Shown here: positions 1 through 62,495 of the stretch, piece by piece | How the letters are laid out: every line of letters begins with the position of its first letter | Position numbering within the stretch: the stretch's first letter is position 1 | IMG/VR virus record: IMGVR_UViG_3300042140_000143 | Location: 1 to 62,495 of that record | Source: a virus | Taxonomy: Duplodnaviria > Caudoviricetes | Direction: 5' to 3' (one strand) | Length of the DNA: 62,495 nt | The notes under the pieces: generated by a model | Databases searched by the model: none | Seen by the model: only the letters and a program-made list of their open reading frames with translations | Told to the model about the DNA's origin: nothing | Program-made: the position numbers and the translations under genes

Positions 1-83
1 CAACGGATGCAGCGGACAGCGTATCAACGTCCTTTGGCATGGCTCGTCTCCTCATCGCTGCCGCTGATCCTGTGCGTTCTCAG
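1..83 (+). repeat. attC-like site A (truncated copy; full copy at 61946-62036)
   Basis: caacgg-ATGCAGCGG-AC...G-CCGCTGAT-cctgtgc-GTTCTCAG; identical to 61954-62036. Confidence 0.85.
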
Positions 84-188
84 TCAGAAAATCATGTCTT
101 ATACGATACGTTTTTGCCTTACCACCTTTGCGACAGCCCATCCTCCATCAACGCTTCACCCCGTGCCGTGAACCAATCGACCATGAGA

Positions 189-638
189 CTAAGCCACCTC
201 ATGTCCGTCTCCAGCAAAGCGGCGATAAATCGACAGAAGCCCTTCGCGGGCGCGGTCGGCGGCGCTGTTTGTTGAGTGTTCCAGAAGTCGTATCGCCGCA
301 CGCACGCAATCACGCTCTTCGTCGGTAAGCGCTGGCCTCGCGTAGAGCGGAGCGACATCCCAGTTCCATTCGTCGGCGGCAGCGCGAGCCTGCTCGTAGA
401 GCGAGTAGACCGCCGACGATTCGCTGCCATCGGCGGCGAAGGCTACCCATGCGACAGGCTGCGGCCTATCAGTTTCGCGTTTCGCGAAAGGTCGCAACCT
501 CTCAAGCAGGCTGGAGATATGCGGCCCGTCGTGCATTGCAACGTGGCCGACAACGGCAACGTATTCCAGTGCGTCAAACTCGGCTTCGGTGATGTTCATT
601 CCATATTCCAGAACGCGATCCCGGCGGGTTCTCGTCAC
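189..638 (-). CDS. Cassette protein with PVAW...PLY and LTDEER modules (Ead/Eaa-like phage accessory protein)
   Basis: 149-aa ORF with QPVAW, PLY and LTDEERD motifs shared with neighbouring cassette genes; start uncertain. Confidence 0.7.
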   Translation of the reverse strand: MTRTRRDRVLEYGMNITEAEFDALEYVAVVGHVAMHDGPHISSLLERLRPFAKRETDRPQPVAWVAFAADGSESSAVYSLYEQARAAADEWNWDVAPLYARPALTDEERDCVRAAIRLLEHSTNSAADRAREGLLSIYRRFAGDGHEVA

Positions 639-825
639 CGCTTTATCAGTGCGGTCGATGCCCGCCGGGATCGCTGTGTCATGTTTCGTAGCAAAAAAAC
701 TGCACCCACCGCCGCCCCGCGCTGCCTAAGAGCATGAAGCCCGTGAGCCGCGTGGCACGCAGCCGTTCAGCAGACCGCAGGGCGACGATGGGCCATCGCA
801 GCCCACGCATGGTGGATGCGTCAAG

Positions 826-928
826 ACCGGGTGGCGGGAATCGAACCCGCGCCTTCGCAATCTGGTTGGTACTGCCGGGCGTGGCCCGGTGATCCCGTTT
901 CGATGCGCTACCATTACGCTACACCCGG
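826..928 (-). ncRNA. tRNA-like RNA with an expanded 49-nt anticodon domain
   Basis: Acceptor stem CCGGGTG/CACCCGG, TA, D-arm GCGT-AATGGTA-GCGC, T-arm GCGGG-TTCGATT-CCCGC; no canonical 17-nt anticodon arm. Confidence 0.7.
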
Positions 929-937
929 ATACGTTTT

Positions 938-1028
938 GTGAGAACCAGCCGATGCAACGGACGGCCCTGCGTCGTCATGTGTCATGGTGAGTCCTCGCGT
1001 GGCCGCCGTTGATCTTCCGCGTTCTCAC
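938..1028 (+). repeat. attC-like site B
   Basis: GTGAGAAC-N6-ATGCAACGG-AC...G-CCGTTGAT-N7-GTTCTCAC. Confidence 0.88.
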
Positions 1029-1342
1029 TCAGATCTGGCGAGCAGTGCCGCCATAACATCCGACCGCATCCGGTCTACCTTTTTACCAGAAAGCCGCACT
1101 ATTTTTGCAGCGTAGGCAATCGCCTCCCGCTCCTCGTCGGTGAGCGTGGCGTCCATGGTCACTGTCACGTTGCCGTCGCATACCGACAGCGTGGCGTCCT
1201 GCTCTGCTATGCGGCGAATGGCTTTTTTGAGCCGCTCATTTTCGGCCCGCAGGTCGTACACCTCTTGCGGCGTCCAATCGGCATCGCAGCCGCACTCGGA
1301 TTCCGAATGGGCCGCACACTTGCATCCTTTGCCGTCAGCCAT
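1025..1342 (-). CDS. Cassette protein, Cys-rich N-terminus and LTDEER C-terminal module
   Basis: AAGGAG RBS upstream of ATG 1342; stop TGA lies in R' of attC-B. Confidence 0.8.
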   Translation of the reverse strand: MADGKGCKCAAHSESECGCDADWTPQEVYDLRAENERLKKAIRRIAEQDATLSVCDGNVTVTMDATLTDEEREAIAYAAKIVRLSGKKVDRMRSDVMAALLARSE

Positions 1343-1353
1343 GCTTGCTCCTT

Positions 1354-1405
1354 GTGAGAACCACGCGATGCAGCGGACGGAGCCGCTGATCGCTGGCGTT
1401 ATCAC
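1354..1405 (+). repeat. attC-like site C (minimal, 3-nt terminal loop)
   Basis: GTGAGAAC-cacgcg-ATGCAGCGG-AC-gga-G-CCGCTGAT-cgctggc-GTTATCAC. Confidence 0.88.
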
Positions 1406-1752
1406 TTCAATCGCTCCAGAACGCTCCGCAGCGTATCGGCAGCGACACGGGATCGTGTCACCGGCATCGACTCGCACTCATCAATGGCGACTGCAACGGC
1501 CGCCCGCTCCTCGTCGGTGAGCCTGCCCCACGACCGCAATCGCTCAATCTCGGCCGCCGCCTCATGGCAGTCGAAATAGTGATCCTCGTCATCGGTGCCG
1601 ATCATGTTGGCCCGCGTCTGCCGCAGGCGGGTCACAATATCGCCGGTGCCCTCGCCGGGTCGGCTTGCCGCTTTATCGGTGCGGTGCCTGTCGGCGTCTG
1701 TACGGGCTATCGCCGCCGGCACGGCGTCATGATTTGTGTCAGAAAAACTCAT
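1402..1752 (-). CDS. Cassette protein with EAAAEIERLR and LTDEER...LERL modules
   Basis: ORF ends in R' of attC-C; shared C-terminal motif. Confidence 0.75.
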   Translation of the reverse strand: MSFSDTNHDAVPAAIARTDADRHRTDKAASRPGEGTGDIVTRLRQTRANMIGTDDEDHYFDCHEAAAEIERLRSWGRLTDEERAAVAVAIDECESMPVTRSRVAADTLRSVLERLK

Positions 1753-1768
1753 GCGGTTTTCTTTCGCT

Positions 1769-1860
1769 CTGAGAACCACGCGATGCAGCGGACCCGCGAT
1801 GCCGCCGTCTGGCTGTGGTTTCGTCAGCGGTCGCGGGCCGCTGATCGCTGGCGTTCACTG
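1769..1860 (+). repeat. attC-like site D
   Basis: CTGAGAAC-cacgcg-ATGCAGCGG-AC...G-CCGCTGAT-cgctggc-GTTCACTG. Confidence 0.88.
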
Positions 1861-2202
1861 GCTACTCTGATTCAAGATTTCCGCTGCCGCCAGCCTCCAT
1901 CGCAATCTCGCGTTCTCTGCGTGGAGAGCATTCAACTCCATCTCCATGACCTTGTATGCCTCTTGTCGAGACACGCGATCGCAAGCCGTGCGAATCTCAT
2001 ACCACTCGTTCCACGCATACAGCGGGACGACCTTTCTAACTCTGTCGGCAAATCGCCCCCGCAATCCGTCAACCTCAACCTTGTCGCGGCACAGCGGCAT
2101 AATGCTGCCGATGCCGTCAACCTCAACGATGTATGCCGCAGGAGCGACGCCCGCCAGTGAACCACGCGATGCAGCGGACATCTCATCTACCTCTTTCGTC
2201 AT
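1855..2202 (-). CDS. Cassette protein (PAAY...VVPLY module)
   Basis: RBS (AGGAG) and ATG inside attC-E; stop in R' of attC-D. Confidence 0.8.
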   Translation of the reverse strand: MTKEVDEMSAASRGSLAGVAPAAYIVEVDGIGSIMPLCRDKVEVDGLRGRFADRVRKVVPLYAWNEWYEIRTACDRVSRQEAYKVMEMELNALHAENARLRWRLAAAEILNQSSQ

Positions 2203-2245
2203 GGTTGCTCCTGTGTTCGATGCCGCTGATCGCTGGCGTTCTCAG
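2155..2245 (+). repeat. attC-like site E
   Basis: CAGTGAAC-cacgcg-ATGCAGCGG-AC...G-CCGCTGAT-cgctggc-GTTCTCAG. Confidence 0.88.
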
Positions 2246-2553
2246 CCTAATCGTTCCAGCATCCTGCGCAGCGTATCAGCAGCCTTCCTGCTTCGATCCT
2301 TGTCGTCCGGCTTCAGATCGTCCCAGCCGACGCATAGCGTGTCTGCTGCCCACTGAATCGCGCCCAACTCCGCATCAGCAGGAGGCTCTTGCCGGTACAG
2401 CGGCACAACATCGACGGGGCCGCCGCCCGCCCATTCCTGCGCGTCATACGCTCGGATAGCGACGTAGACAATGCTGCCGCCGTGTTCGACCGCCCACGCC
2501 GCAGCGTGAGAACCAACGGATGCAGCGGACAGCGTATCAACGTCTTTCGGCAT
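2242..2553 (-). CDS. Cassette protein, paralog of 61658-61993
   Basis: MPKDVDTLSAASVGS N-terminus encoded by attC-F; ends LERLG. Confidence 0.8.
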   Translation of the reverse strand: MPKDVDTLSAASVGSHAAAWAVEHGGSIVYVAIRAYDAQEWAGGGPVDVVPLYRQEPPADAELGAIQWAADTLCVGWDDLKPDDKDRSRKAADTLRRMLERLG

Positions 2554-2596
2554 GGTTCGTCTCCTTATCGCTGCCGCTGATCCTGCGTGTTCTGTG
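2506..2596 (+). repeat. attC-like site F (near-identical to A)
   Basis: GTGAGAAC-caacgg-ATGCAGCGG-AC...G-CCGCTGAT-cctgcgt-GTTCTGTG. Confidence 0.88.
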
Positions 2597-2597
2597 G

Positions 2598-2852
2598 CTA
2601 CCAATCAATCTCTGGAGGGGCAGGAAGCGGCATCCAGTGGGTTGGCCAGTTGGGAACCGTCCACCCGTAAAGCGTGTCGATCCATTCGCCGTCTCGGCAG
2701 TAGCCGAAAACCACTCGCCCGCCAAGCCACGCCAGAACCACTTTGCCTGCGTCGGGCAGCCGCTTCGTCACCGGAATCCAACCATCCGGTGTCGCCGGAT
2801 AGTTCGCCACAGAACCACGCATTGGAGCAGACCCGTCAGCGTCCTGTGTCAT
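2598..2852 (-). CDS. Cassette protein, DUF551-like
   Basis: WIPVTKRLP...THWMPLPAPP signature; RBS and ATG within attC-G. Confidence 0.8.
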   Translation of the reverse strand: MTQDADGSAPMRGSVANYPATPDGWIPVTKRLPDAGKVVLAWLGGRVVFGYCRDGEWIDTLYGWTVPNWPTHWMPLPAPPEIDW

Positions 2853-2894
2853 ATCAACGTCTCCTCTCGGGCTGCTCAATGCAGCCGTTCTCAC
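2808..2894 (+). repeat. attC-like site G (divergent L boxes)
   Basis: CACAGAAC-cacgca-TTGGAGCAG-AC...G-CTGCTCAA-tgcagcc-GTTCTCAC; compensatory changes keep pairing and the extra G. Confidence 0.85.
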
Positions 2895-3074
2895 ATTCTG
2901 GAATCTCTAAATGCCCCCGCCCACCCGGTGCGCTACCCATTGTCTGGACGCATTCGTCTAGGGGCTCGCCTCCACCCGCGTAGGCCGGTGACTGCCGCTC
3001 TGCATTCCGCTTTATCAGTGCGGCGCTGGAGCCGGGTGGTGACGTTGTTTCACTCATAATACGGTTTGTCATGG

Positions 3075-3302
3075 TCACTTGTGCTGCGGCACCCTCGTTG
3101 GCTTGCCGGGATGGTCGATCCCGTACATGGGATTTCCCATCACCCGGACCTCGCTGGAATCGACATGGACGACGGCACCCGTGTCGAACTGGTGGACGAG
3201 CCAGACCGTGTTGATGCTGGGGCCGTAGTCGATGAGGAACAGGGCGTGCCCCTCGCCCAGAGGCGTCGTGACCCAGAGCGGCGGGTTGCACTGGTGGATC
3301 AT
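3075..3302 (-). CDS. Hypothetical phage protein
   Basis: 75-aa ORF translationally coupled to the upstream gene. Confidence 0.65.
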   Translation of the reverse strand: MIHQCNPPLWVTTPLGEGHALFLIDYGPSINTVWLVHQFDTGAVVHVDSSEVRVMGNPMYGIDHPGKPTRVPQHK

Positions 3303-3592
3303 GGCCTCTCCGCCAGGAACTCCGCCCGGCCCTGCACCATCACGGCGTTGACGAGCCCGGCCACCACGCCGCCGGCCACCAAGCAGGCAAGCAGCAGGGA
3401 GATGAGCCGGTTGGTGCGGCGCACCTGAGCCATCTTGGCCTCGTGGTGCAGCCGCCAGACCCGCCGTTCCTCCATGTGCTTGGCGAGGAGGGCGTCAACG
3501 GCGTCCCACTCAAAGGCACCGCGAGCCGGAGTGGGCATCCTTTCCCACTCCGGCAGCGCAGCCACGAGGCGGTCGAGGTCTTCGACGGTCAT
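3299..3592 (-). CDS. Hypothetical membrane protein
   Basis: ATGA overlap with ssb; C-terminal hydrophobic helix. Confidence 0.65.
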   Translation of the reverse strand: MTVEDLDRLVAALPEWERMPTPARGAFEWDAVDALLAKHMEERRVWRLHHEAKMAQVRRTNRLISLLLACLVAGGVVAGLVNAVMVQGRAEFLAERP

Positions 3593-3939
3593 GCGAACGG
3601 AATCTCGTCGTCACCCACGCTCACAGCCTCCCGCTTGGGCCACCGGAGGCTGACGCCCACCTCATTTGCCATCAGACGCAAGGAGAAGCCCTGTGTGCCG
3701 TCCTTCTTCTGGTACGTCTCCAGACCCATCCGGCCGGAAACGACCACTCTCTGGCCCTTCTGGAGCGTCTCCGAGCATGTCTCGGCCTGCTCGTCAAAAC
3801 AGACCACCTCCACCCACGTCGTCGGCCCCTCCTTCTTCTCCGTCGAGGCCACCGAGAAGGTCAGCATGGCCTTCCCGCTCTTGGTGATCCGAATCTCGTT
3901 CACCTTGCCCACATTGCCAGTCACGGTCGCTTCGATCAT
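3589..3939 (-). CDS. ssb: Single-stranded DNA-binding protein
   Basis: TGNVG...FSVA...KGQRVVVSGR OB-fold motifs; acidic DDEIPF tail; GAGG RBS. Confidence 0.92.
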   Translation of the reverse strand: MIEATVTGNVGKVNEIRITKSGKAMLTFSVASTEKKEGPTTWVEVVCFDEQAETCSETLQKGQRVVVSGRMGLETYQKKDGTQGFSLRLMANEVGVSLRWPKREAVSVGDDEIPFA

Positions 3940-3977
3940 CGGTTCCTCTCTCTCATTGGGATGCTGGACAGGCGGAC

Positions 3978-4005
3978 AGCATACGCCTGGACGGGCGTAT
4001 AGCAA
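3978..4005 (-). promoter_or_regulatory. Candidate sigma70 promoter overlapping a palindromic operator
   Basis: TTGCTA-N16-TATGCT on the - strand; ATACGCC-N6-GGCGTAT palindrome at 3981-4000. Confidence 0.5.
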
Positions 4006-4024
4006 CCCCCCTACAGGCGTGGGG

Positions 4025-4570
4025 TCAGTATTTTGCGCCTTTTGCGAGGTTGTCTTTTGCCCACAAGGGCTGAAGGTTTGCGTAGTGGAAACACGCGGCC
4101 TGCTCGGACGGGCGAGATAGGTCGAACGATGCGCACGGGCGAATGTGGTCGATGTGCCACATTCGGCGGTTCTCCCATGTCATTCCAGGGAGGAACTTCG
4201 ATTCGATGTGTGACCGAAGCGCGTCGTGAGAACACCCGACAAGCCGAAGAGCGGAAGCGGCCTTCCGCTCTCCGCACAAAACACGGCGCAGTCGCTTTCT
4301 CAGCCGCAGCATCATGTCAAAGCCAGGATCGTGCGCGCGCCGCAACTTGTCCGCTTCCCTCCGGTCCTTTCGGAGTTTGGCGGCATATTCTGGGTCGTCT
4401 GCCCGCCTGCGGCGGCGACGTTCATTCGCAGCCATCCTCTTCTCAGCCTCTCGCATGGCGTAGGCAGAGTCATGCCAAAGCCTGTACAGCCTGCGCTCCT
4501 TGTTTCGCCGGCGGCGGTCGCTTGCAGTCCGCCCCCGACGCTCGCCCCGCGTCATCCATTTTGGATTCAC
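4025..4570 (-). CDS. HNH-like endonuclease
   Basis: WHIDHIRPCASFDL...CFHYANLQPLWAKDNLAKG motif; basic N-terminus. Confidence 0.8.
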   Translation of the reverse strand: MNPKWMTRGERRGRTASDRRRRNKERRLYRLWHDSAYAMREAEKRMAANERRRRRRADDPEYAAKLRKDRREADKLRRAHDPGFDMMLRLRKRLRRVLCGERKAASALRLVGCSHDALRSHIESKFLPGMTWENRRMWHIDHIRPCASFDLSRPSEQAACFHYANLQPLWAKDNLAKGAKY

Positions 4571-4894
4571 AGCACGCCTCCGTGCGGGCAGGCTCCCGCG
4601 CCGACGATCCTCTGGATAGGCTCACCTATTGGTGGGGGTCAATGATTTTGGGAAACTTTTGGCGGGGGGAACGTAACTAGGTGCGTGCGGGCGTTGGGGG
4701 GCTCAGGGGTGGGCCATCTATATGCAGGCCCCGCCGCTGAAAGCAAGGCACCAATCCTTCACGCTGTCCGTCGATACCGTGAACCGACCCGCCGCGACCC
4801 GTTTTGATCGCGGTCCATCCGCTGCGGCGTCTGTTCTGTGTCGGAGCGACGACGACGGGTGATCGTCGTGCTACCGACGAGGAGCATGTGAACC

Positions 4895-5167
4895 ATGAAA
4901 ACGCTCGACGGGCGGCCCCTCGATGTCGAGATTCAGTACGGCAAGTTTGCGGTGTCGATCAACTCGGAGGCCGCCGAAGTCTGCCTTCACCTCCCGCAGT
5001 ACCCGTACCTGCACCGACTGTTCAAGAGCGACGATCTTGACCTGCTGTGTGCTGCGTTCACAGAGGCTTGCGGGCTGGTGGACGCGGGCTTTGACCTGCA
5101 ATCGGATGTGCTGCATTGGACGGGCCGTTCGTTCGCAGTCTGCCCGCTGTCTGCGGTTCGCCGCTGA
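4895..5167 (+). CDS. Hypothetical early protein
   Basis: GAGGAG RBS; flanked by the 15-bp repeat. Confidence 0.7.
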   Translation: MKTLDGRPLDVEIQYGKFAVSINSEAAEVCLHLPQYPYLHRLFKSDDLDLLCAAFTEACGLVDAGFDLQSDVLHWTGRSFAVCPLSAVRR

Positions 5168-13194: not shown

Positions 13195-13301
13195 TTTCCC
13201 CGCAGATTCACCGCTGCGGCGTCTGTTCGTTAGGGGAACGGGGTAGCATCGTGCTGCCCCGTCCCCTGCCCTATTGGTTCCCCACGAGGAGAGTCCCTCT
13301 C

Positions 13302-14405
13302 ATGTCTCGCACTGTACTCGGCAATACCCCCGCGTTCCTCGCTTGTCAGGTCGCACCCACGCTCGTCAAGGGTGGCACTGGCGTCGGCAAGTCCTCGACG
13401 TGGGAGGCACTGGCTGGGGCACTGGAGCGGACGTTCGTTCCGCTGCTCGGTGCCACCCACCTGCCCGAAGATTTCTCTGGCTACCCCATCCCTGACCACA
13501 AGGCCGGCGTGGTTCGCATGCTGCCGACCTCGCTGTGGGAAAAGACCAAGAGCGGCAAGGCTCTCGTTCTCGTGGACGAGGTGACCAACGTGCCGTCCGC
13601 TACCCAAGCCGGCCTGCTCTCCGTCCTATCGGAGCGGCGGATCGGTGAGTACGTCATGCCGGCATCGACCATCATCGTCGGTGCCTGCAACCCGCCGGAA
13701 CTGTGCCCCAATGCGGTGCCACTCGCACCTGCCATGCGGGCACGGTTCGTTCACTTCGACTGGGAGGTGGACTACGAACACTGGTTCACCGGCCTGCGAG
13801 CAGGTTGCCAGTGGAAGGCACCCTCCTTCCCCGTCGTGCCTGACCATTGGACCGACTTCCTCCCGCAGTTCGGCTCGCTGGTCGAGGCGTTCCTCCGTGC
13901 GACTCCCGACGCCCGCGAGAAGTTGCCGCAGGACGACGAGACGATGGCGTTCCCCAACCTGCGGACGTGGACGTTCCTCGCCCGGTGCTTCTCGGCGGCG
14001 GGTGCCTGCGGGTATGAGCAGAAAGACCCCATCTACCGGCCGCTTGCGACGGGCTGCGTGGGTGCGGAGATCGGCGGCGAGTTCCTCCGGTACTGGCACC
14101 GGCTCGACCTCCTCAACCCGGAGGCGTACCTGTCCGGTGCGGAGAACTACAAGTACGAGCGGCGACCGGACGCCAACATCTGCTTCCTCACCGGGCTGGT
14201 GAAGTCGCTGCGTGACAACACCAGCAAGGAGCGGTGGACCCGTGCGGCGGAGGCGTTCATCACCATCGGGGAACAGGAGATCGAGTCGTTCTTGATGCAG
14301 TTCCGTTCGTTTTGGAATCCCGTCAGCAAGGGCGGCGTTCGCCCCGACGGCTGGTCGCCGCCGAAGGACGTGCTGGCGAAGTTGATGGCGTTGGTTCAGC
14401 AGTGA
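13302..14405 (+). CDS. MoxR-like AAA+ ATPase
   Basis: Walker A GGTGVGKS, Walker B VLVDE, GACNP, PAMRARF. Confidence 0.88.
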   Translation: MSRTVLGNTPAFLACQVAPTLVKGGTGVGKSSTWEALAGALERTFVPLLGATHLPEDFSGYPIPDHKAGVVRMLPTSLWEKTKSGKALVLVDEVTNVPSATQAGLLSVLSERRIGEYVMPASTIIVGACNPPELCPNAVPLAPAMRARFVHFDWEVDYEHWFTGLRAGCQWKAPSFPVVPDHWTDFLPQFGSLVEAFLRATPDAREKLPQDDETMAFPNLRTWTFLARCFSAAGACGYEQKDPIYRPLATGCVGAEIGGEFLRYWHRLDLLNPEAYLSGAENYKYERRPDANICFLTGLVKSLRDNTSKERWTRAAEAFITIGEQEIESFLMQFRSFWNPVSKGGVRPDGWSPPKDVLAKLMALVQQ

Positions 14406-14429
14406 CACCCACACACAGGAGAACGACAC

Positions 14430-15923
14430 ATGACGCCTCGTCAGTTACTGGGGCAGGCACGGGTACATACCTTTGAGTACGTCCCGTACCTCGCCTCATA
14501 CATCTACTCCCTGCGTGAGCAGGAGACGCCGGGCATCGGCACGGCGGCAGTGGATGAAGCGGGAAACCTGTACTGGGACCCCGCATTCATCACCGCGATT
14601 GGCAAGGAGCAGGGTGCGTACCTCGTGACCCACGAGGTGCTGCATCTGATCTTCGACCACCACTCGCGGGCGAAGGAAATCATCGGGGAGAACCCGAGCG
14701 AGTTTCAGCGGTTCGTCTGCAACGTGGCCGGCGATCTGGTCATCGAGCAGACGCTCTCCATGATGCGTGACCTGCGGCCGGAGGGGGCAGTCCATCTGGG
14801 CTGCGACGTTCCGGACTGGGGCATCCGGCTCGACTTCCCCGAGAACCGGTCGATGCAGGAGTATTACCGGCTCATCATGGAGAAGTTGCAGAAGAACAGT
14901 GACGACAACAAGAACCAGCAGCAACAGGGAGGCAGCGACAATGGCGGCCAGCAACAGCAGGGAGATAGCGGTGCTTCCAATGGGGGCGGGCAGGACGGCG
15001 ATGACGCGGACGGAGATGGCGGTGACGGTGCGGGCGACGATCAACAGCCAGATCATGGAGCAGGCGACTCTGGAGGCGAGGGGGCCGGCGAAGATCAAGC
15101 AACTGGCCCGCAGATGGCGTCTCCAGGCGGAGCGGGATCGCCTCCAACTGGGCAGGGCAAGGCACCGCAGAAGCCCGGTTCGCCGGGCACGGGTGGCTCG
15201 TGTGCGGACGGGTGCCCACGCCCCTACGAGGTAGACAGCGACGGGTCGTGGGAAGCCTACGGCGAGGACATGGCCGCAGCCCAAGCGGAAGATGCCATCG
15301 CCCAGTACGAGGAGAGCCATCCCGGCAAGGTGCCCGGCTCCCTCAAGCAGGCACTCCAGCAGAAGTTGCGGCCCGTGCCAGACCCGTTCGACCAGTTGCG
15401 GTCGGCGGTCTGCACCAGCGTGGCCTCGCCTGTCGGTGGGCGGGACTACTCCCACCGTCGTCGGTCACGCAAGCAGCCGCCGGGCGATGACGACCCGCTC
15501 CTGCACGGCCGCATCACCGTGCAGCCGCATGCCGTCGTGATCGTGGACACGTCGGCATCCATGATGACCAAGCACATCCAGGCGAAGGCGCTCTCCGTCA
15601 TCGCTCAGGGCTTGAGGAAACTGGGGCGGGTCAAGGTGTACTGCGCCGACACGCAGGTGCAGTCCGACGCGATGGTTGCAACGACGAAGGTGTTTGACTG
15701 GCACGGTGGCGGCGGCACGGATATGTCCACCGCCATCGAGCAGGTGGAGAAGGACGAGCGGCCCGACTCCATCGTCCTCGTCACCGACGCCGAGACGAAC
15801 TGGCACGGCAAGAAGCCCCGTGCCCGCGTCGTCGTGGCGTACACGGGCAAGAAGGGTTCTCTCTGGCACACGTCGATCCCCAAATGGGCTCGCGTCGTGC
15901 CGCTACCGCAGGAGGAAGCATGA
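14430..15923 (+). CDS. Metallopeptidase-like (HExxH) plus VWA domain protein (DUF2201-like)
   Basis: HEVLH, low-complexity G/D/Q linker, MIDAS DTSAS, GGGTD, VTD. Confidence 0.85.
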   Translation: MTPRQLLGQARVHTFEYVPYLASYIYSLREQETPGIGTAAVDEAGNLYWDPAFITAIGKEQGAYLVTHEVLHLIFDHHSRAKEIIGENPSEFQRFVCNVAGDLVIEQTLSMMRDLRPEGAVHLGCDVPDWGIRLDFPENRSMQEYYRLIMEKLQKNSDDNKNQQQQGGSDNGGQQQQGDSGASNGGGQDGDDADGDGGDGAGDDQQPDHGAGDSGGEGAGEDQATGPQMASPGGAGSPPTGQGKAPQKPGSPGTGGSCADGCPRPYEVDSDGSWEAYGEDMAAAQAEDAIAQYEESHPGKVPGSLKQALQQKLRPVPDPFDQLRSAVCTSVASPVGGRDYSHRRRSRKQPPGDDDPLLHGRITVQPHAVVIVDTSASMMTKHIQAKALSVIAQGLRKLGRVKVYCADTQVQSDAMVATTKVFDWHGGGGTDMSTAIEQVEKDERPDSIVLVTDAETNWHGKKPRARVVVAYTGKKGSLWHTSIPKWARVVPLPQEEA

Positions 15924-17047: not shown

Positions 17048-17788
17048 ATGCCCATCGTCTACGCCTACGGCCGGGCATCCACCGGCCGCCAGACCATCAC
17101 GGAGGACGCCCAGCGTTCCGTGTGCGAGGAGTACATCAAGCGGGCCCTCGTGCCGGAGGGCTACACCTACGGGGGCTGGCTCTACGACTCCGCCACCAGC
17201 GGCACCAAGCCCATGTTTGAGCGGGACGAAGGCCGCAAGGTGTGGGCCCTTGTCCAGCCGGGCGACAAGATCGTGTGGGCCAAACTCGACCGGGCCTTCC
17301 GCTCCGTCATCGACGCCGCCCAGACGATGCAGTTGCTCAACCGCAAGGAGGTGTCGTTCAACTCCCTCGATCTCGGGCTGGACACCGGCAGTCCCATCGG
17401 CCGCTGCGTGTTCACCATCCTCACGGCGTTCGCGGAACTGGAGGTGGAGTTCATCCGGCAGCGGACGAGGGACAGCCTGCGGGCCAAGCGCAAGGCCGGC
17501 AAGCCACACGGCCGGCATGCCCCCATCGGCTGGAAGAAGTGCGGCACGGGCAAGGACTCCTACTACCTCCCCGACGACGAGGAGCGACGGCAGGTGGACG
17601 CGATGGCGGCCATGCGTAAGGGCGGTGCCAGCCTGGAGCGCATCACGCTGGCCTTCTACAACGTCCGCCGGCCCAACGGAAGCCGCTGGAACATCAACTC
17701 CATCACCCGTGCCCTCAAGGCACAAGCGGCTCGCTTTGCAAAAGCGTTCCCAGACACTCCAAAGCGACGGCCAGCCGCCGCTGGATAG
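17048..17788 (+). CDS. Serine recombinase (resolvase/invertase family)
   Basis: YGRAST..Q catalytic motif, SGT, LDRAFRS, FAELE. Confidence 0.9.
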   Translation: MPIVYAYGRASTGRQTITEDAQRSVCEEYIKRALVPEGYTYGGWLYDSATSGTKPMFERDEGRKVWALVQPGDKIVWAKLDRAFRSVIDAAQTMQLLNRKEVSFNSLDLGLDTGSPIGRCVFTILTAFAELEVEFIRQRTRDSLRAKRKAGKPHGRHAPIGWKKCGTGKDSYYLPDDEERRQVDAMAAMRKGGASLERITLAFYNVRRPNGSRWNINSITRALKAQAARFAKAFPDTPKRRPAAAG

Positions 17789-29749: not shown

Positions 29750-30567
29750 AGTCTCCCCAGAACATGAGCCGGAAACGAAAGTTCAACGACCTCGCCGTGC
29801 GCTTCCGGCAACCACCAGTCGAGGTCTTCACGAAGACGGAGTTCAGCCAGCGCCTCATTCATGCGCTGGCGGCCAGCCGCAGTGACGTGCGGCGGCAGGG
29901 TCACGACCTGACAGTCGTGAGGGATGGCGGTGGAGATGACGATGAAGTGCAGGGGCTTGGACTCCAGCCCCATCGCCTCCATGCCGCACCGATACCATGC
30001 GTCCTGCAAGTGGTAGCGGAACCGAGCCACCGCACTCGGGAAGTCGGCGAGGATGTCGCCCTCGCGGGTGGTCTTGAGATCAACGACGATGCCGTCGCTG
30101 GTCAGCATGTCGAAGCGGCACTTGAGCCGGTGCCCGTCCTGCTCCCAGTACACGCTGAGTTCGTGTTCACTGGGCCTGGACAGCAGTTCAGCGGCAGACG
30201 GGTTGCTGAGGATGGCGTCCACCTCAGCCAGAATCTGGGCCCGCTCCTTCGGGTTGACCAAAATGGCCCCCTGCGGAGCCTCGTTTTTGGCCCACTTCTC
30301 CGCTTCTTTGCCCACGAGCCCGGTGGCCGTTAGGGTGGAAGCAGGAGGCACGACCAGCAATTCAAGGAAGTCTTCGCCCTCTTCCATCCACCGGTGCAGC
30401 AGGGTGCCGTGATCCATCGCGGCGCTGCTGAACGGCGGCAGGGACTTGGCGATGTACCGCTGGTGGTACAGGACGGGAGAGTCAAGGAGCGTTTTGACTC
30501 GACTGCATGACCTGTGCGTTTCATTGGCGTGATAGTCGGCGTTCGCTTCTCCTCGCCGAATCACGGT
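29746..30567 (-). CDS. RecE/ExoVIII-like PD-(D/E)XK exonuclease (DUF3799-like)
   Basis: DYHA, GTLLH, LKCRFD...DLKTT, YHLQDAWY; start uncertain. Confidence 0.85.
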   Translation of the reverse strand, partial: TVIRRGEANADYHANETHRSCSRVKTLLDSPVLYHQRYIAKSLPPFSSAAMDHGTLLHRWMEEGEDFLELLVVPPASTLTATGLVGKEAEKWAKNEAPQGAILVNPKERAQILAEVDAILSNPSAAELLSRPSEHELSVYWEQDGHRLKCRFDMLTSDGIVVDLKTTREGDILADFPSAVARFRYHLQDAWYRCGMEAMGLESKPLHFIVISTAIPHDCQVVTLPPHVTAAGRQRMNEALAELRLREDLDWWLPEAHGEVVELSFPAHVLGRL

Positions 30568-30688
30568 GCGCACATGGTGCGTGTGCGCACCGAACGTGAC
30601 AGGCGTAGCGGAAAGAGCGGTCGTGCTGGCCTGCCCAACGGTGCCGGCATCACCGCAACCTTCCTCTACTCTTGTAGGGGATATAACC

Positions 30689-31504
30689 ATGACCAGCCTC
30701 CGTGCCTTGATTGAGCGTTACCTGCAATCCCGATGCGTCAGCGCGGGCTACCGCGCCAACCTGAGAACCCTAGCCCGCTCCTGCAAAACGATGACTGTCC
30801 CAGCCGTCAACAGGCACCTGACTCGCCGCATGTCTGAGGTCAAGCCGATCTCGGTTGATTCTGACAGGCGCATGATCGTGAGCGTGTGGAGGTGGGCCTA
30901 CGAAACCGGCTTAGTGGATTCGCTGCCGCGTGGACTCGTCAAGATCAAAGTGCCTCGACTGCCCACGAAGGCATGGACTGTAGAACAGTGCTGTACGGCT
31001 GTCAAGGGGACTTACGAGCGGACTGCCATCATTCGCCAGAAGGGCGTCACGGAGGGCGAGTTGCTCCGCTGCTGGATACTGCTAGGCTACGAAACTGGGG
31101 CAAGGCAGGGCGACTTGTGGGAGATGCGCGACTCCGACTTTATCGACGGGGCTGTTCGGTGGGGACAGCACAAGACCGGCGAGCCGCACGTCAAGATTCT
31201 CAGCCCTGCCTGCATGAAGGCCGTCAACGACATGCTGGCGCGCTCGCCAGATGGGCGCGTGCTGGGGTGGGTGATGTCGAGTGGTGGCGGACGCAGGAAG
31301 ATGAAAAAATACCTCGCCTCCCTGCGGCTATCGGGGTCATCAAAGTGGCTGCGGCGTAGCGGGGCCACCCACATCGAGATGGAACATCCCGGCAAGGGGC
31401 GTCTGCATCTTGGTCACAAGACGCACGGGCTGGCCGAGCGTTGCTACATCGACTGGTCGCAGGTCAGGAGGGACATCCCAAGCACGCCCGTGCTACTCAA
31501 ATAG
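30689..31504 (+). CDS. Tyrosine recombinase (phage integrase family)
   Basis: YETGAR..DL, HKTG, WLRRSGAT, LGH, ERCY; lone + strand gene between replication and virion modules. Confidence 0.88.
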   Translation: MTSLRALIERYLQSRCVSAGYRANLRTLARSCKTMTVPAVNRHLTRRMSEVKPISVDSDRRMIVSVWRWAYETGLVDSLPRGLVKIKVPRLPTKAWTVEQCCTAVKGTYERTAIIRQKGVTEGELLRCWILLGYETGARQGDLWEMRDSDFIDGAVRWGQHKTGEPHVKILSPACMKAVNDMLARSPDGRVLGWVMSSGGGRRKMKKYLASLRLSGSSKWLRRSGATHIEMEHPGKGRLHLGHKTHGLAERCYIDWSQVRRDIPSTPVLLK

Positions 31505-59448: not shown

Positions 59449-61182
59449 TCACCGCTGCTCCGTGAGGCCAGAAAGAACGCCGGGCTGCTGGGCTGCGGCG
59501 GCACCTCCGGCAATGGCTGTCGGCAGCATCAAGGACTGGAGGATGTTGCGGGCACTGCGGAATCGCACGTCCAGAGGAGCGAGGTCGGCTCGCCGCAGCA
59601 CCCTTGCGCCGGCAGGAGTGAATGCGGTCGAAAGCCCAGCCTCGTCGCTCACGAGCGTGCCTTTCGCGCCGGCGGCCATCAGCGGCTCCGTGTAGCCCTT
59701 GCGATGCTCGGCCACGTCGAAACTCGGATACGTCCCGCCGCCAAGTGACGTCGTTTCGGATTCTGGCGACACCCTCTCCAGCCGCTTCAGCGCATGCTCT
59801 CGCCAGTCGTGCCAGTCTTCCAAGTCGCCGGCCGGGTTGAGGTTCTCGGCCAAGTGAGATGTCCGCAGCCAGATGCGCTGCCGCTCTGGGGACTCCGGAT
59901 ACTTGGCTTTCAGCGAAGCCGCCTGCCGCTGCTTGAAGGCGTCGTATGCCTCCGGCGGCATCCGGTCGATCCCCGCGATCCCGGAATTGGGGCCGAGCAA
60001 CGGGTATAGCGTGATTTCGTCGCGCGGCACCTGCACGCCGAGCCGCGCGTAGTCAGGGTTGTGGCTCGTGTAGACAAGCCCTTCGCTCTTGGGCTGCAAG
60101 TTGACGAACTTCATTCCGCCCTTGTCTAGCCGTCTCTTGTTCGCCTGCGACAGCGCGGCGCCAGTAAAGCCCTTCATCTCCTTTTTGAGCGGCGAGTCCC
60201 AGCGATACCAGACGGCATTGGGGTCCAAGTCCATTGCCGCAGCGCGGTCTGCGCGCGAAGCAGCGTCCATCCGCAAGTCTCCGGACGCGATGGCGTCCAG
60301 CGTTCGCTGATCCACGCCGTGAGCGGACAGGTAGTCGAGGTAGTCGCGGTTTCTGGCATTGTGAAGTGCGGCTGCGGGACCGGAATCTTCTGGCAAGAAG
60401 CCAGTGATGTGGCCTTTCTTGATGGCGTCGGCAAACCCCTCCTCCATCGCATTCACGGCTCGCGCCACGCCCTTGCGATGCTCTGGCGACTGCGCCAGTT
60501 CGCGCAGTTTAGCGACGTATTCGCGGATGCCCATTTCGGGCGGTCGCTCGTAGTATTCCTGCGGCGGGCGAAATTGCGGCGTCGGCTTGGGGCCCGAAGA
60601 CGACCACAACGCGCCATCCGGCAAATCCCAGCCGCCACCGCCACCGCCTGCGGCGAGCAGTTCGGACTGCAACGACACATCCGGAGACGGAAGCCCTTTT
60701 TCTGTGTGGAAGAAATCCGGAGGAAGGTGCTGTGCCGCCAGTTGCTCGATCTCCTTGCCGGCGGACGGCGCGGCCGCATTGTCGATGAGGCCCATTCCGG
60801 CAAGCGCCTTCTGGGCTTCCGATTGCTTTTTTGACCAGAAGTGCGGGTCGATCTTGAACCAGTGATCCCACACCTTCTGGGAGAACGCAGGCGTCCACTC
60901 GGACTCGTAGCCTTGTGCTACGGCCGTCTTTTTCAGCGGCTCATCGGTGTCGCTAGACAGCCACGAGTCGAGGTCTTCGGCCGTCGCGCCGGAAAGCAGG
61001 TCGTCTGCCGGCTTGGCGTAGCCAGAGGCGGCGTCCTTCTGCTTGTAGTAGTCGGCCAGTTCGCTGATGTGGATGAGGTCGGAGCCCTTGTCCGCCGCCT
61101 TCGCCGCCTGCGCGGCCTTCTTCGCGGCCTGCAAGGCAGCGATCTTCTTGGCGTGCAGGGCGAGTTGAGACGGTGATGCCAT
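59449..61182 (-). CDS. Hypothetical virion-associated protein
   Basis: 577 aa; preceded by GCCATAAAT. Confidence 0.65.
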   Translation of the reverse strand: MASPSQLALHAKKIAALQAAKKAAQAAKAADKGSDLIHISELADYYKQKDAASGYAKPADDLLSGATAEDLDSWLSSDTDEPLKKTAVAQGYESEWTPAFSQKVWDHWFKIDPHFWSKKQSEAQKALAGMGLIDNAAAPSAGKEIEQLAAQHLPPDFFHTEKGLPSPDVSLQSELLAAGGGGGGWDLPDGALWSSSGPKPTPQFRPPQEYYERPPEMGIREYVAKLRELAQSPEHRKGVARAVNAMEEGFADAIKKGHITGFLPEDSGPAAALHNARNRDYLDYLSAHGVDQRTLDAIASGDLRMDAASRADRAAAMDLDPNAVWYRWDSPLKKEMKGFTGAALSQANKRRLDKGGMKFVNLQPKSEGLVYTSHNPDYARLGVQVPRDEITLYPLLGPNSGIAGIDRMPPEAYDAFKQRQAASLKAKYPESPERQRIWLRTSHLAENLNPAGDLEDWHDWREHALKRLERVSPESETTSLGGGTYPSFDVAEHRKGYTEPLMAAGAKGTLVSDEAGLSTAFTPAGARVLRRADLAPLDVRFRSARNILQSLMLPTAIAGGAAAAQQPGVLSGLTEQR

Positions 61183-61210
61183 AGAAATCCCTCACGGGAT
61201 TTATGGCCCC

Positions 61211-61354
61211 CTACTTCGCCAGCAGGTACAGCCCCACGTTGGAAAAGGCGTACCCCAGATAGGCGACCCCCATGCCGGGATTGCCACGCCAGAACTGCTC
61301 TACGGAGACGTAGGCGTAGATCACGCCGGTCAGTGCGATCAGCCAGCCGCTCAT
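61211..61354 (-). CDS. Small membrane protein
   Basis: MSGWLIALTG...GYAFSNVGL; ATGA-coupled. Confidence 0.6.
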   Translation of the reverse strand: MSGWLIALTGVIYAYVSVEQFWRGNPGMGVAYLGYAFSNVGLYLLAK

Positions 61355-61560
61355 TTTGTGCGCTCCAGCAGGGCCCGCAGCGTGTTGGCTTCCGCAGACG
61401 GCGAGACGAATCCGATCAGTCTGTCAATCGCCGCCCGCTCGTCAGCCGTCAGCAGGCCCGAAGCCTCCTCCTGCAACTCCTGCATCTCGCGCCACATCCG
61501 TCGCTCTCTGGGCGTGCAGTCGCAGTTCATCGGCTTCTGGTCGCAGATCGGGCAGGGCAT
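61351..61560 (-). CDS. Small protein with the cassette-type LT.DER...LLER module (outside the array)
   Basis: GAGGA RBS; CPIC...CDC. Confidence 0.7.
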   Translation of the reverse strand: MPCPICDQKPMNCDCTPRERRMWREMQELQEEASGLLTADERAAIDRLIGFVSPSAEANTLRALLERTK

Positions 61561-61623
61561 TGGCTTGTCCTCATAACGCGGGCTTGTGGCTGTTTCTCGG
61601 CCTATAACCGCACTCGCCGCCGG

Positions 61624-61663
61624 ATTAGGCTGCGAACTGGCAGCCTAATTCTTGTTCTCAGCC
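61624..61663 (+). other. attI-like head site of the cassette array
   Basis: ATTAGGCTGC-N6-GCAGCCTAAT hairpin, then TCTT-GTTCTCAGCC; a GTT core with no attC arms. Confidence 0.55.
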
Positions 61664-61993
61664 TAGCCGTTCCAGCAATCCCCGAAGCGCCACAGCGTCA
61701 GCCGCCGCAGCCTTGTCACCAAATAGTCTCGCGTCCTGCTCTGCCCCCTCCAGCGCCTCCCGAATCGCCGCTCGCTCCGCTGCCGTAAGGGTTGGAGGCG
61801 GCGTCAGGTACAGAGGCAGAATGTCCTGCTCGCTCCTGCCGTTGTGCCGTGCGCTTGCCTCTGCCCACTTTCGCTGTGGATGTACCGACACCGCCCGCGT
61901 GCGGCTGCTGACGAGTGCCGGATTGCCGACCGACCAAGCAACCGGCTGAGAACCAACGGATGCAGCGGACAGCGTATCAACGTCCTTTGGCAT
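61658..61993 (-). CDS. First cassette protein (PVAW...PLY and LT..ER...LERLG)
   Basis: RBS and ATG inside attC-A; stop in the GTTCTCA core at 61654. Confidence 0.8.
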   Translation of the reverse strand: MPKDVDTLSAASVGSQPVAWSVGNPALVSSRTRAVSVHPQRKWAEASARHNGRSEQDILPLYLTPPPTLTAAERAAIREALEGAEQDARLFGDKAAAADAVALRGLLERLG

Positions 61994-62036
61994 GGCTCGT
62001 CTCCTCATCGCTGCCGCTGATCCTGTGCGTTCTCAG
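61946..62036 (+). repeat. attC-like site A (full copy)
   Basis: CTGAGAAC-caacgg-ATGCAGCGG-AC...G-CCGCTGAT-cctgtgc-GTTCTCAG. Confidence 0.88.
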
Positions 62037-62044
62037 TCAGAAAA

Positions 62045-62290
62045 TCATGTCTTATACGATACGTTTTTTGTCGGCCCCGCCCCGCCTACATCAGTGACCG
62101 ACGCGGTGCGTGGGCCTTCGACGGGAGCAGGGCCGACGTTCGGGATGGCAAGCCGCATGGCGGCCTCAATCATTTGAGTGGCGCGGCCGTGCTCTGGCTG
62201 GTCGCAAACATCCATCAGAGTGTCGCGGTAGTCCTGCGCACAACTGACGCAGAACAGGATGGCCTCGCATTCTTCGGCGGTGAGTGTCAT
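62045..62290 (-). CDS. Alternative cassette protein
   Basis: MTLTAEECEAI...; ATGA-coupled to a 22-aa leader starting at 62355 inside attC-B'. Confidence 0.65.
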   Translation of the reverse strand: MTLTAEECEAILFCVSCAQDYRDTLMDVCDQPEHGRATQMIEAAMRLAIPNVGPAPVEGPRTASVTDVGGAGPTKNVSYKT

Positions 62291-62307
62291 GTTTTTTCGC
62301 AGAAAAA

Positions 62308-62398
62308 CTGAGAACCAGCCGATGCAACGGACGGCCATGCGTCGTCATGTGTCATGGTGAGTCCTCCGGTGGCCGCCGTTGATCTTCCGCGTTCTCAC
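62308..62398 (+). repeat. attC-like site B' (allele of B)
   Basis: Same as 939-1028 with 3 internal substitutions. Confidence 0.88.
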
Positions 62399-62495
62399 TC
62401 AGATCTGGCGAGCAGTGCCGCCATAACATCCGACCGCATCCGGTCTACCTTTTTACCAGAAAGCCGCACTATTTTTGCAGCGTAGGCAATCGCCT

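Follow-up and report, generated by a model that had tools for sequence, protein, structure and literature searches.

Probable cassette alleles in an integron-type attC cluster of an uncultured freshwater phage

Integrons are known as bacterial devices, and attC clusters in phages have until now been rare curiosities. Clusters of attC sites lacking an integron integrase (CALINs) were reportedly defined by Cury et al. in 2016, and the promoter-early stem-loop (PeSL) cassettes of T4-type phages are said to have been described by Arbiol et al. in 2010. In the survey by Qi et al. 2023, integron parts are given for 21 of 10,705 isolate phage genomes, mostly with 2–3 sites each, CALINs are given for 17 isolate phages among the 10,705 genomes screened, and phages are proposed to access cassettes via host integrases (PMC9892861). 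Planctomycetes are among 11 taxa with a published taxon-specific attC model, according to Ghaly et al. 2021 (PMC8352920). The window considered here is the whole 62,495-nt stretch of viral DNA that forms IMG/VR record IMGVR_UViG_3300042140_000143, a single contig classed as linear. It very probably carries a phage CALIN with seven attC sites, whose second slot holds at least two cassette alleles in the sampled population. Its ends overlap, both alleles occur in one sample, and its sites have attC structure, kinship with host sites and cassette boundaries at GTT.

The two ends of the contig overlap far beyond chance. Positions 1–115 are identical to 61954–62068 (a 115-nt common prefix), and positions 939–1125 match 62309–62495 with three mismatches, namely 967 C/A (62337), 997 G/C (62367) and 998 C/G (62368). 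The inserts between these shared flanks are unrelated, with 823 nt on the left (116–938) and 240 nt on the right (62069–62308); read from the ends, the divergence point lies at 938/62308. The longest exact terminal repeat is 127 nt (999–1125 = 62369–62495), and, terminal overlaps aside, the 62 kb hold one exact 31-mer repeat, a 38-nt stretch common to the array sites attC-A and attC-F. The workflow of the Joint Genome Institute (JGI) uses the assembler metaSPAdes with k = 33, 55, 77, 99 and 127. Because of the terminal overlaps, the exact 127-nt repeat and the k of 127 in this workflow, the contig reads as a tail with the left allele (1–998) joined to a closed circle with the right allele (999–62368, 61,370 bp), and a circle closed with the left allele instead has 61,953 bp. 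The assembler path would have run from the minor left allele into shared sequence, once round a circular or permuted genome and into the right allele, and would have ended on meeting an already used 127-mer. The 127-nt repeat and the occurrence of both branches among contigs of metagenome X1 (see below) place the window with assembly walks over a strain bubble. As in the strain bubbles of de Bruijn graphs, the walk crosses one allele, circles, crosses the other and ends on a repeated k-mer. Two points weigh against this reading: the contig begins 115 nt, and not 127 nt, ahead of the point where the branches diverge, and the context of the left allele upstream of position 1 lies outside the contig. 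The left allele with its upstream context was not recovered in searches with its open reading frame (ORF), which gave five ORF relatives on contigs of 1.2–3 kb, and none of four other array-bearing contigs has an end overlap of the window's kind.

Logan contigs aligned with 61000–62495 served as a test of the bubble. Both alleles are present in one freshwater metagenome, X1, where the contigs break off at 62068 and resume at 62039, the pattern of a branch at k = 31, and where one contig ends in 30 nt equal to window positions 909–938, directly before attC-B (62309). In X3 and X14, single contigs run without any difference from attC-A through the right unit (62007–62367, 361 nt, and 61955–62367, 413 nt, respectively). 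An initial annotation of the window, made from the letters alone, had proposed that cassette polymorphism in the population broke the assembly at a bubble between genomes of about 61,953 and 61,370 bp; the closed circles give the same figures, and the bubble is supported by the repeat equal in length to k, the breaks in X1 and the bridging in X3 and X14. The comparison of coverage that it had suggested could be made for the right unit, which lies below the backbone in X1, where the left allele is also found (43.2 vs 54.3–60.4, with 53.3 past the slot), and near the backbone in X3 (28.2 vs 23.2–32.3) and X14 (10.1 vs 11.8). Since Logan contigs lose rare variants, the apparent presence of the right allele only in X3 and X14 means that it is the sole or the major one there. 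This loss of rare variants weighs against the reading as well, and the loose ends treated here are the listed ones, besides which ten more exist; X1 and X3 are possibly the window's own source and are therefore not independent of it. In addition, a joint 61653→62391 occurs in X3 (6.2x) and X17 (8.75x), with only GTTCTCA shared; it skips 737 nt, which correspond precisely to cassette 1 and the right cassette together. In these runs, several further sequences are joined to the same attC ends, at 62309–62311 and 62394–62397.

These data also bear on two other accounts of the contig. The left 998 nt might come from a distant phage sharing attC-A, the 39 nt behind it, attC-B and the next cassette, so that the contig would be chimeric; the link between the left unit and the backbone is indeed only 115 nt, less than k = 127, and many related phages with common attC classes coexist in the same runs, as the varied loose ends indicate. 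Such a chimera is nevertheless very unlikely, as the junction is letter-identical over 115 nt and 127 nt, whereas the backbones of related phages differ by 2–16%; moreover, the nearest other copy of the A type, attC-F, differs at 6 of 79 positions, and the 33 shared nt at 83–115 occur in no other fetched locus. A contig that holds both units and is classed as linear in IMG/VR could also suggest that both lie in one molecule, for instance because a linear genome has terminal repeats that are not identical or because the slot is duplicated in tandem. This is scarcely credible in view of X3 and X14, which bridge the right unit with no branch to the left one, and of the depth of the right unit in X1, which stays under that of the backbone; an end of exactly 127 nt is the product to be expected of a graph walk, and terminal repeats, which are copied from each other, should be identical.

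The repeats that bound the cassettes are built as attC sites. In the window they are imperfect palindromes of about 50–90 nt, whose single-stranded DNA folds have a 6-bp outer R box (AAC/GTT) and an internal loop. One arm bears two single-base bulges with a spacing of 7 nt, the terminal loops range from 2–3 nt to about 45 nt, and the arms are conserved. A covariance model of the element (R1) was made from 80 sites (7 from the window, 40 viral and 33 bacterial). It gives eight full matches and a truncated one in the window, all on the plus strand and at 54–82 bits, with the next best at 16 bits; seven of these nine were included in the training, whereas those at 2810–2893 and 1–75 stood outside it. 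AAC and GTT are invariant in 80/80 aligned sites and present in 9/9 window matches. Across 458 distinct elements, the spacer column pairs in 132 and the stems in 349–457, the G at position 12 is unpaired, and the stem columns show compensatory changes (GC in 356 and AT in 55; CG in 391, GC in 37 and TA in 11; CG in 251 and GC in 92). In the 80-site alignment, 89.8% of cells are paired vs 75.7% after shuffling, and changes on both sides number 242 vs 95, with 0/500 shuffles as high; in controls with the alignment slid, 24–51% of cells pair. No Rfam family matches the repeats at the gathering score, nor at E ≤ 1 within 1–5000. One candidate explanation, by which the repeats are conserved gene starts of tandem paralogues, is ruled out by the hairpin covariation, the startless copies with short loops and the flanking of host integrases.

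The window sites deviate from the full attC consensus RYYYAAC / GTTRRRY, as given by Qi et al. (PMC9892861). They read GAGAAC...GTTCTC, GTTCTG, GTTATC or GTTCAC, and this departure of the R' box from the canonical RRRY after GTT is a point against calling them attC; the host copies flanked by integrases deviate likewise (GTTCGG, GTTCTG and some GTTAGG). On the circular map, seven attC sites lie within 3.7 kb without an IntI, as in a CALIN, and the window does not hold a complete integron, which would have intI, attI and a promoter beside the array, since no TIGR02249-like gene is present.

The same family of sites is found in bacterial integrons. A search pattern of 17 specified bases from the left arm of the element matches at least 117 contigs in IMG/VR and, in the genome collection, at least 120 stretches, with about 70 of the latter matches estimated as possible by chance, and many single genome matches lie in unrelated taxa and lack the second arm. 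Among the matches listed, 22 of the 26 titled loci with the full two-arm element bear names of the Planctomycetota lineage. The integrase model TIGR02249 exceeds its curated cut-off in 15/28 genomes with the two-arm element vs 0/14 control genomes, and R1 matches lie within about 2 kb of intI in 7/12 fetched intI loci, none of which was in the training set. Site family and integron-integrase gene stand side by side in bacterial genomes only. TIGR02249 is matched at E ≤ 0.001 in 0/48 array-bearing viral records, and within the window the integrase evidence consists of a weak PF00589 match, with no TIGR02249-like gene; both findings weigh against the present reading, whose catalyst is therefore an inferred one. 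Given the kinship with host integrons and the lack of TIGR02249 in the 48 viral records, the phage arrays are CALINs in the sense of the integron literature. As a separate observation, sites of the phage type, with a short loop or an antisense start in the loop, occur on short contigs of metagenome-assembled genomes (MAGs) labelled Cyanobium, Methylocystis and others (L132, L147, L160, L164, L186 and L193), which are probably mis-binned phage contigs or prophages.

A cassette unit extends from the TT that follows one G|TT as far as the G of the next one and closes with its own attC. With these limits, the left allele of cassette 2 is a 945-bp unit (77–1021, plus strand) that opens with the TT behind the G of attC-A and reaches to the G in the left copy of attC-B, and the right allele is a 362-bp unit (62030–62391, plus strand), the one bridged by the contigs of X3 and X14; GTTCTCA starts at 76, 1021, 62029 and 62391, and the two units share their first 39 nt (77–115). 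End-to-end comparison confirmed the two units, with their GTTCTCA limits, as well as the identical flanks, the shared stretch of about 39 nt and the three attC-B differences that had been noted initially. These three differences fit an attC that belongs to each cassette. The labels of attC, array and cassette given in the same annotation are supported as well, the first by the architecture, the covariation and the family beside bacterial integron integrases, and the others by the two-cassette gap at GTTCTCA and by homology that breaks at GTT.

Other viral loci also indicate movement of cassettes as units. Homologous cassette bodies form 14 pairs between different viral loci, 3 of them fully syntenic; in at least 7 of the 11 non-syntenic pairs, the body keeps its own attC (90–100% identity) and has a changed neighbour on one or both sides. 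In six aligned examples, the homologous stretch begins or ends at GTT or no more than 5 nt after it. Cassette limits lie at G|TT and, on the top strand, the attC travels with the cassette upstream of it. Locus L001, whose backbone is 95–98% identical to the window, diverges from it directly after GTTCT, at 61654–61658, and six relatives carry different arrays at the same genomic place. The less tidy cases are the body pair of L094/L073 vs L057, where the upstream attC is better kept than the body's own (92% vs 75%), and a body pair that is neutral on which attC is kept; both weaken the cassette reading.

It could be argued instead that the repeats are only patches of homology and that homologous recombination by the phage or the host shuffles the genes, the slot having been swapped by a double crossover in its 115-nt and 187-nt flanks. 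The flanks of the slot are identical or 98% identical, the phage encodes a single-stranded DNA-binding protein (SSB) and a PD-(D/E)XK exonuclease, and a handful of attC classes are each found on many cassettes, the B type, for instance, on ten other cassette bodies in other contigs, which supplies homology. The general form of this explanation is nonetheless unlikely. The joint 61653→62391 shares 7 nt only, and the hairpin site of L114, which is the same hairpin-plus-GTT boundary as in the window with other flanks, precedes a cassette start that follows an ordinary attC in L099. Moreover, bodies travel with the downstream and not the upstream attC, breaks cluster at GTT, and compensatory changes preserve a specific bulged hairpin, which homology alone would not need. 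For the single replacement in slot 2, the case is closer. At one end the alleles have 39 nt in common, and at the other their attC-B copies are 96% identical. Homologous exchange therefore fits this event equally well, and the initial caveat to that effect stands, given the 115-nt identity to the left of the slot and the closely matching attC-B to its right. On our reading, this one replacement may have been site-specific rather than homologous.

If the sites are attC relatives, turnover of the cassettes would be catalysed by an integron integrase of the host, acting on phage attC sites folded as single strands during infection. We lean towards this mechanism, which is suggested by the kinship of the sites and the breakpoints at GTT. 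A competing candidate is a small tyrosine recombinase of the phages themselves. PF00589 matches occur in 8/9 near-complete array-bearing viral records (32–96 kb), 7 of them over the cut-off, and form one family of about 300 aa (L253–L260). This family includes the divergent recombinase of the window (30566–31504, plus strand; PF00589 at 17.7 bits at best), which lies about 30 kb from the array and matches lambda Int at E 0.004 and the L260 homologue with 29% identity over 246 aa (E 5e-20). Recombination of the arrays by this enzyme, rather than by the host integron integrase, seems quite unlikely, for the gene is 6–30 kb or more from the array in every case and is missing in 1/9 records; an integrase is expected in temperate phages regardless, and the gene may simply serve lysogeny. 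Moreover, the family is no nearer to IntI than tyrosine recombinases are generally (22% identity, E 9e-5), and no member matches TIGR02249 at E ≤ 0.001.

The two slot-2 cassettes carry different genes. The 149-aa ORF and the tRNA-like RNA on the left and the 81-aa ORF on the right had been recognised initially and are confirmed; a DUF3800-VIII RNA present in both units had been missed. At the left end, positions 1–115 (plus strand) comprise the remainder of attC-A (1–76; truncated R1 match at 1–75, 54.3 bits) and the 39 nt common to both cassettes. The left ORF (189–638, minus strand) has 149 aa from a GTG, or 136 aa if it starts with the ATG at 599; it is partly paralogous to the ORF of cassette 1 (30% identity over 80 aa). 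It has no Pfam domain and belongs to a family of small hypothetical proteins with 115 relatives, none informatively named. Because relatives of its two halves occur elsewhere as separate, half-length cassettes, the 945-bp unit may be a fusion. The DUF3800-VIII RNA of the left allele (711–786, minus strand) scores 43.4 bits against a gathering score of 40.2. It is accompanied by a tRNA-like gene (826–928, minus strand; Rfam tRNA, 52.3 bits), in which 43 nt with a small hairpin of their own stand in the anticodon arm in place of 11. With introns allowed, ARAGORN reads this gene as a tRNA-Cys (GCA) with a 30-nt intron, split inside the anticodon, and with default settings it finds zero tRNAs in the window; a pseudo-tRNA, a tRNA with an intron and a decoy are all conceivable identities of the gene. 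The left copy of attC-B (940–1027, plus strand; R1 81.6 bits) has in its loop an antisense ribosome site and an ATG at 985, which opens a 23-codon leader (914–985, minus strand). On the minus strand, the order of the left cassette is thus loop start with leader, tRNA-like RNA, DUF3800-VIII RNA, ORF and shared 39 nt.

In the right allele, the 81-aa ORF (62045–62290, minus strand) is conserved in L013 with 76% identity over 74 aa. Its 22-codon leader (62287–62355) begins in the loop of attC-B (62310–62397, plus strand; R1 82.4 bits), a copy that differs from the left one at 62337, 62367 and 62368, and the TGA of the leader overlaps the ATG of the ORF. The DUF3800-VIII RNA (62071–62136, minus strand; 61.5 bits) overlaps the 3' third of the ORF, so that the minus strand reads loop start with leader, ORF overlapping the RNA, and shared 39 nt. 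The absence of 83–115 from all other fetched loci hints that the two cassettes are related; a shared 25-nt stretch has no match in viral or metagenome contigs, a search whose coverage possibly leaves out near-identical records. The DUF3800-VIII motif has been described without an assigned function (PMC5737381). It is also present in the arrays of L013 (10700–10765), L065 (2561–2626) and L089 (711–776), that is, in 3/11 loci, and in L270 (425–508). The motif is translated as part of an ORF in several loci, with a conserved end ...VGPAPVE..VTDVGGAGPT; the left allele does not do so, and none of three frames over its motif gives the peptide seen over the right copy. No DUF3800 protein gene is found in the window.

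The orientation of the genes sets the phage cassettes apart. A strand test on cassettes bounded by two detected sites, with a score of ORFs weighted by the GC content of third codon positions (GC3), puts the best ORF in sense to the attC top strand in 77/97 cassettes of bacterial loci, whereas in viral loci it is antisense in 157/175 cassettes (5/5 in the window). A DUF551 match and the flanking genes confirm that coding in the window is on the minus strand here. With a relaxed pattern, an antisense ribosome site and ATG are found in the loops of 95/284 viral and 9/182 bacterial sites, and of 5/7 complete window sites; short loops occur in 105/284 viral vs 8/182 bacterial sites. A cassette closes with its own attC, and for this reason an antisense ORF from the loop start to the TGA of TGAGAA lies within one cassette. 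Where the loop holds both ribosome site and ATG, the cassette thus carries a whole translation unit.

The rest of the array has the same make-up. Its proximal boundary (61622–61660, plus strand) is a perfect 12-bp hairpin followed by GTTCTCA; the hairpin is not an R1-type attC, yet cassettes join at its GTT, and it bears no likeness to the flanks of host intI genes. Cassette 1 follows (61655–62029, 375 bp, plus strand), with an ORF of 116 aa (61658–62008, minus strand), or 111 aa from the loop ATG at 61993, and attC-A (61948–62035, plus strand; R1 82.4 bits). Beyond slot 2, cassettes 3–7 (1022–2887, plus strand) each close with an attC (54.7–82.5 bits) and hold one minus-strand ORF apiece. The attC sites, as found with R1, lie on the plus strand at 1356–1404, 1771–1859, 2157–2244, 2508–2595 and 2810–2893, and the ORFs on the minus strand at 1025–1342, 1402–1779, 1855–2202, 2242–2553 and 2598–2852, the last being a DUF551 gene (E 8e-11). 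This is the sole match of the cassette ORFs in Pfam, PHROGs and NCBIfam. Scans for promoters and terminators found nothing beyond shuffled sequence, the boundary hairpin excepted. A repeat of about 28 nt with CCGCTTTATCAGTGCGG lies at 630–657, 1660–1687 and 2999–3026, just upstream (in the minus sense) of three ORF starts; it also occurs in L013 and L096 and might serve as a promoter or operator.

The window is a phage genome, near-complete (98% by CheckV) and from freshwater, with the array placed between the late and early gene blocks, and its host is probably a bacterium of the Planctomycetota. Hallmark genes include a portal protein (SU10/P22-like), a major head protein (phrog_9953), SSB, DUF551 and a helicase, together with a PD-(D/E)XK nuclease, a serine recombinase and the weakly matching tyrosine recombinase. 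When 50,697 phage records were searched by BLAST with the structural genes and with the array, no relative was found, the sole exception being a 175-nt match to an unrelated 197-kb virus; none of the cultured phages comes near it. Adjoining the array, a 577-aa protein (59449–61182, minus strand) is 84% identical in L001 and has no sequence match in Pfam, PHROGs, NCBIfam or PDB. The small serine recombinase (17048–17788, plus strand; Resolvase domain, 100 bits) lies inside a plus-strand gene block. At 13251–15923 (plus strand), a gene for an AAA_5 (MoxR-like) ATPase is followed by one for a DUF2201 metallopeptidase/VWA-like protein, an odd pair for the replication or early block of a phage.

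In eight of nine near-complete relatives (G002, G012, G013, G015, G025, G028, G037 and G039), all attC matches lie within 5.6 kb of a contig end, at both ends in G002; either the arrays break assemblies or they sit near genome termini. The practical lesson is that arrays of this sort interrupt or entangle the assembly of metagenomes, and that circular genomes can then be filed as linear.

Host integrons have been reported in a 2024 preprint to store defence systems. A speculative possibility is that the phages of Planctomycetota in freshwater have a cassette economy of their own, with host-type sites, backward cassettes and a hairpin that would act both as recombination site and as translation-start element. 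The cassettes would circulate among unrelated phages by way of the host integrase or the recombinase of about 300 aa, and their cargo, including the DUF3800-VIII and tRNA-like RNAs, would serve counter-defence. Counter-defence cassettes in phages, if true, would mirror the defence-storing host integrons. One attC family links the chromosomal integrons of Planctomycetota with more than 100 uncultured freshwater viral contigs, and the gain, loss and replacement of cassettes are seen directly within natural populations, by which it becomes testable whether phages draw on host integrases to rearrange a pool of accessory genes.

Compared with integron cassettes and CALINs in general, the array has the same AAC...GTT-boxed imperfect hairpins with an unpaired spacer, bulges and a variable loop, about one ORF between sites and G|TT limits, and its sites belong to the same family as those by bacterial TIGR02249 genes. 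It differs in lying in a phage without an integron integrase, in ORFs that are antisense and often start in the attC loop, and in an R' box that is pyrimidine-rich after GTT. PeSL cassettes likewise form a hyperplastic region of small ORFs, with repeated stem-loop separators and modular shuffling between phages; they are, however, said to bear promoters and to be thought homology-driven, whereas the elements here are attC relatives with breaks at GTT. The chromosomal attC sites of Planctomycetes are a conserved taxon-specific type, and the window sites share both arms with sites of Planctomycetota MAGs; the phage copies differ in having short loops or loops with antisense starts. In the literature searched, with subscription journals outside its coverage, no description of the window's variant was found. 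attC clusters in phages are a kind already known, and what is undescribed there is a Planctomycetota-type family across uncultured phages with inverted cassettes, starts inside attC, RNA cargo and alleles in one population. The phage CALINs of Qi et al. are also attC clusters without an integrase, and one of them adjoins a terminator-like hairpin with GTT motifs; set against that survey, the present case differs in a single attC family that extends over at least 117 uncultured viral contigs, in arrays of up to seven or more sites, in the inverted polarity of the ORFs and in alleles seen in natural populations.

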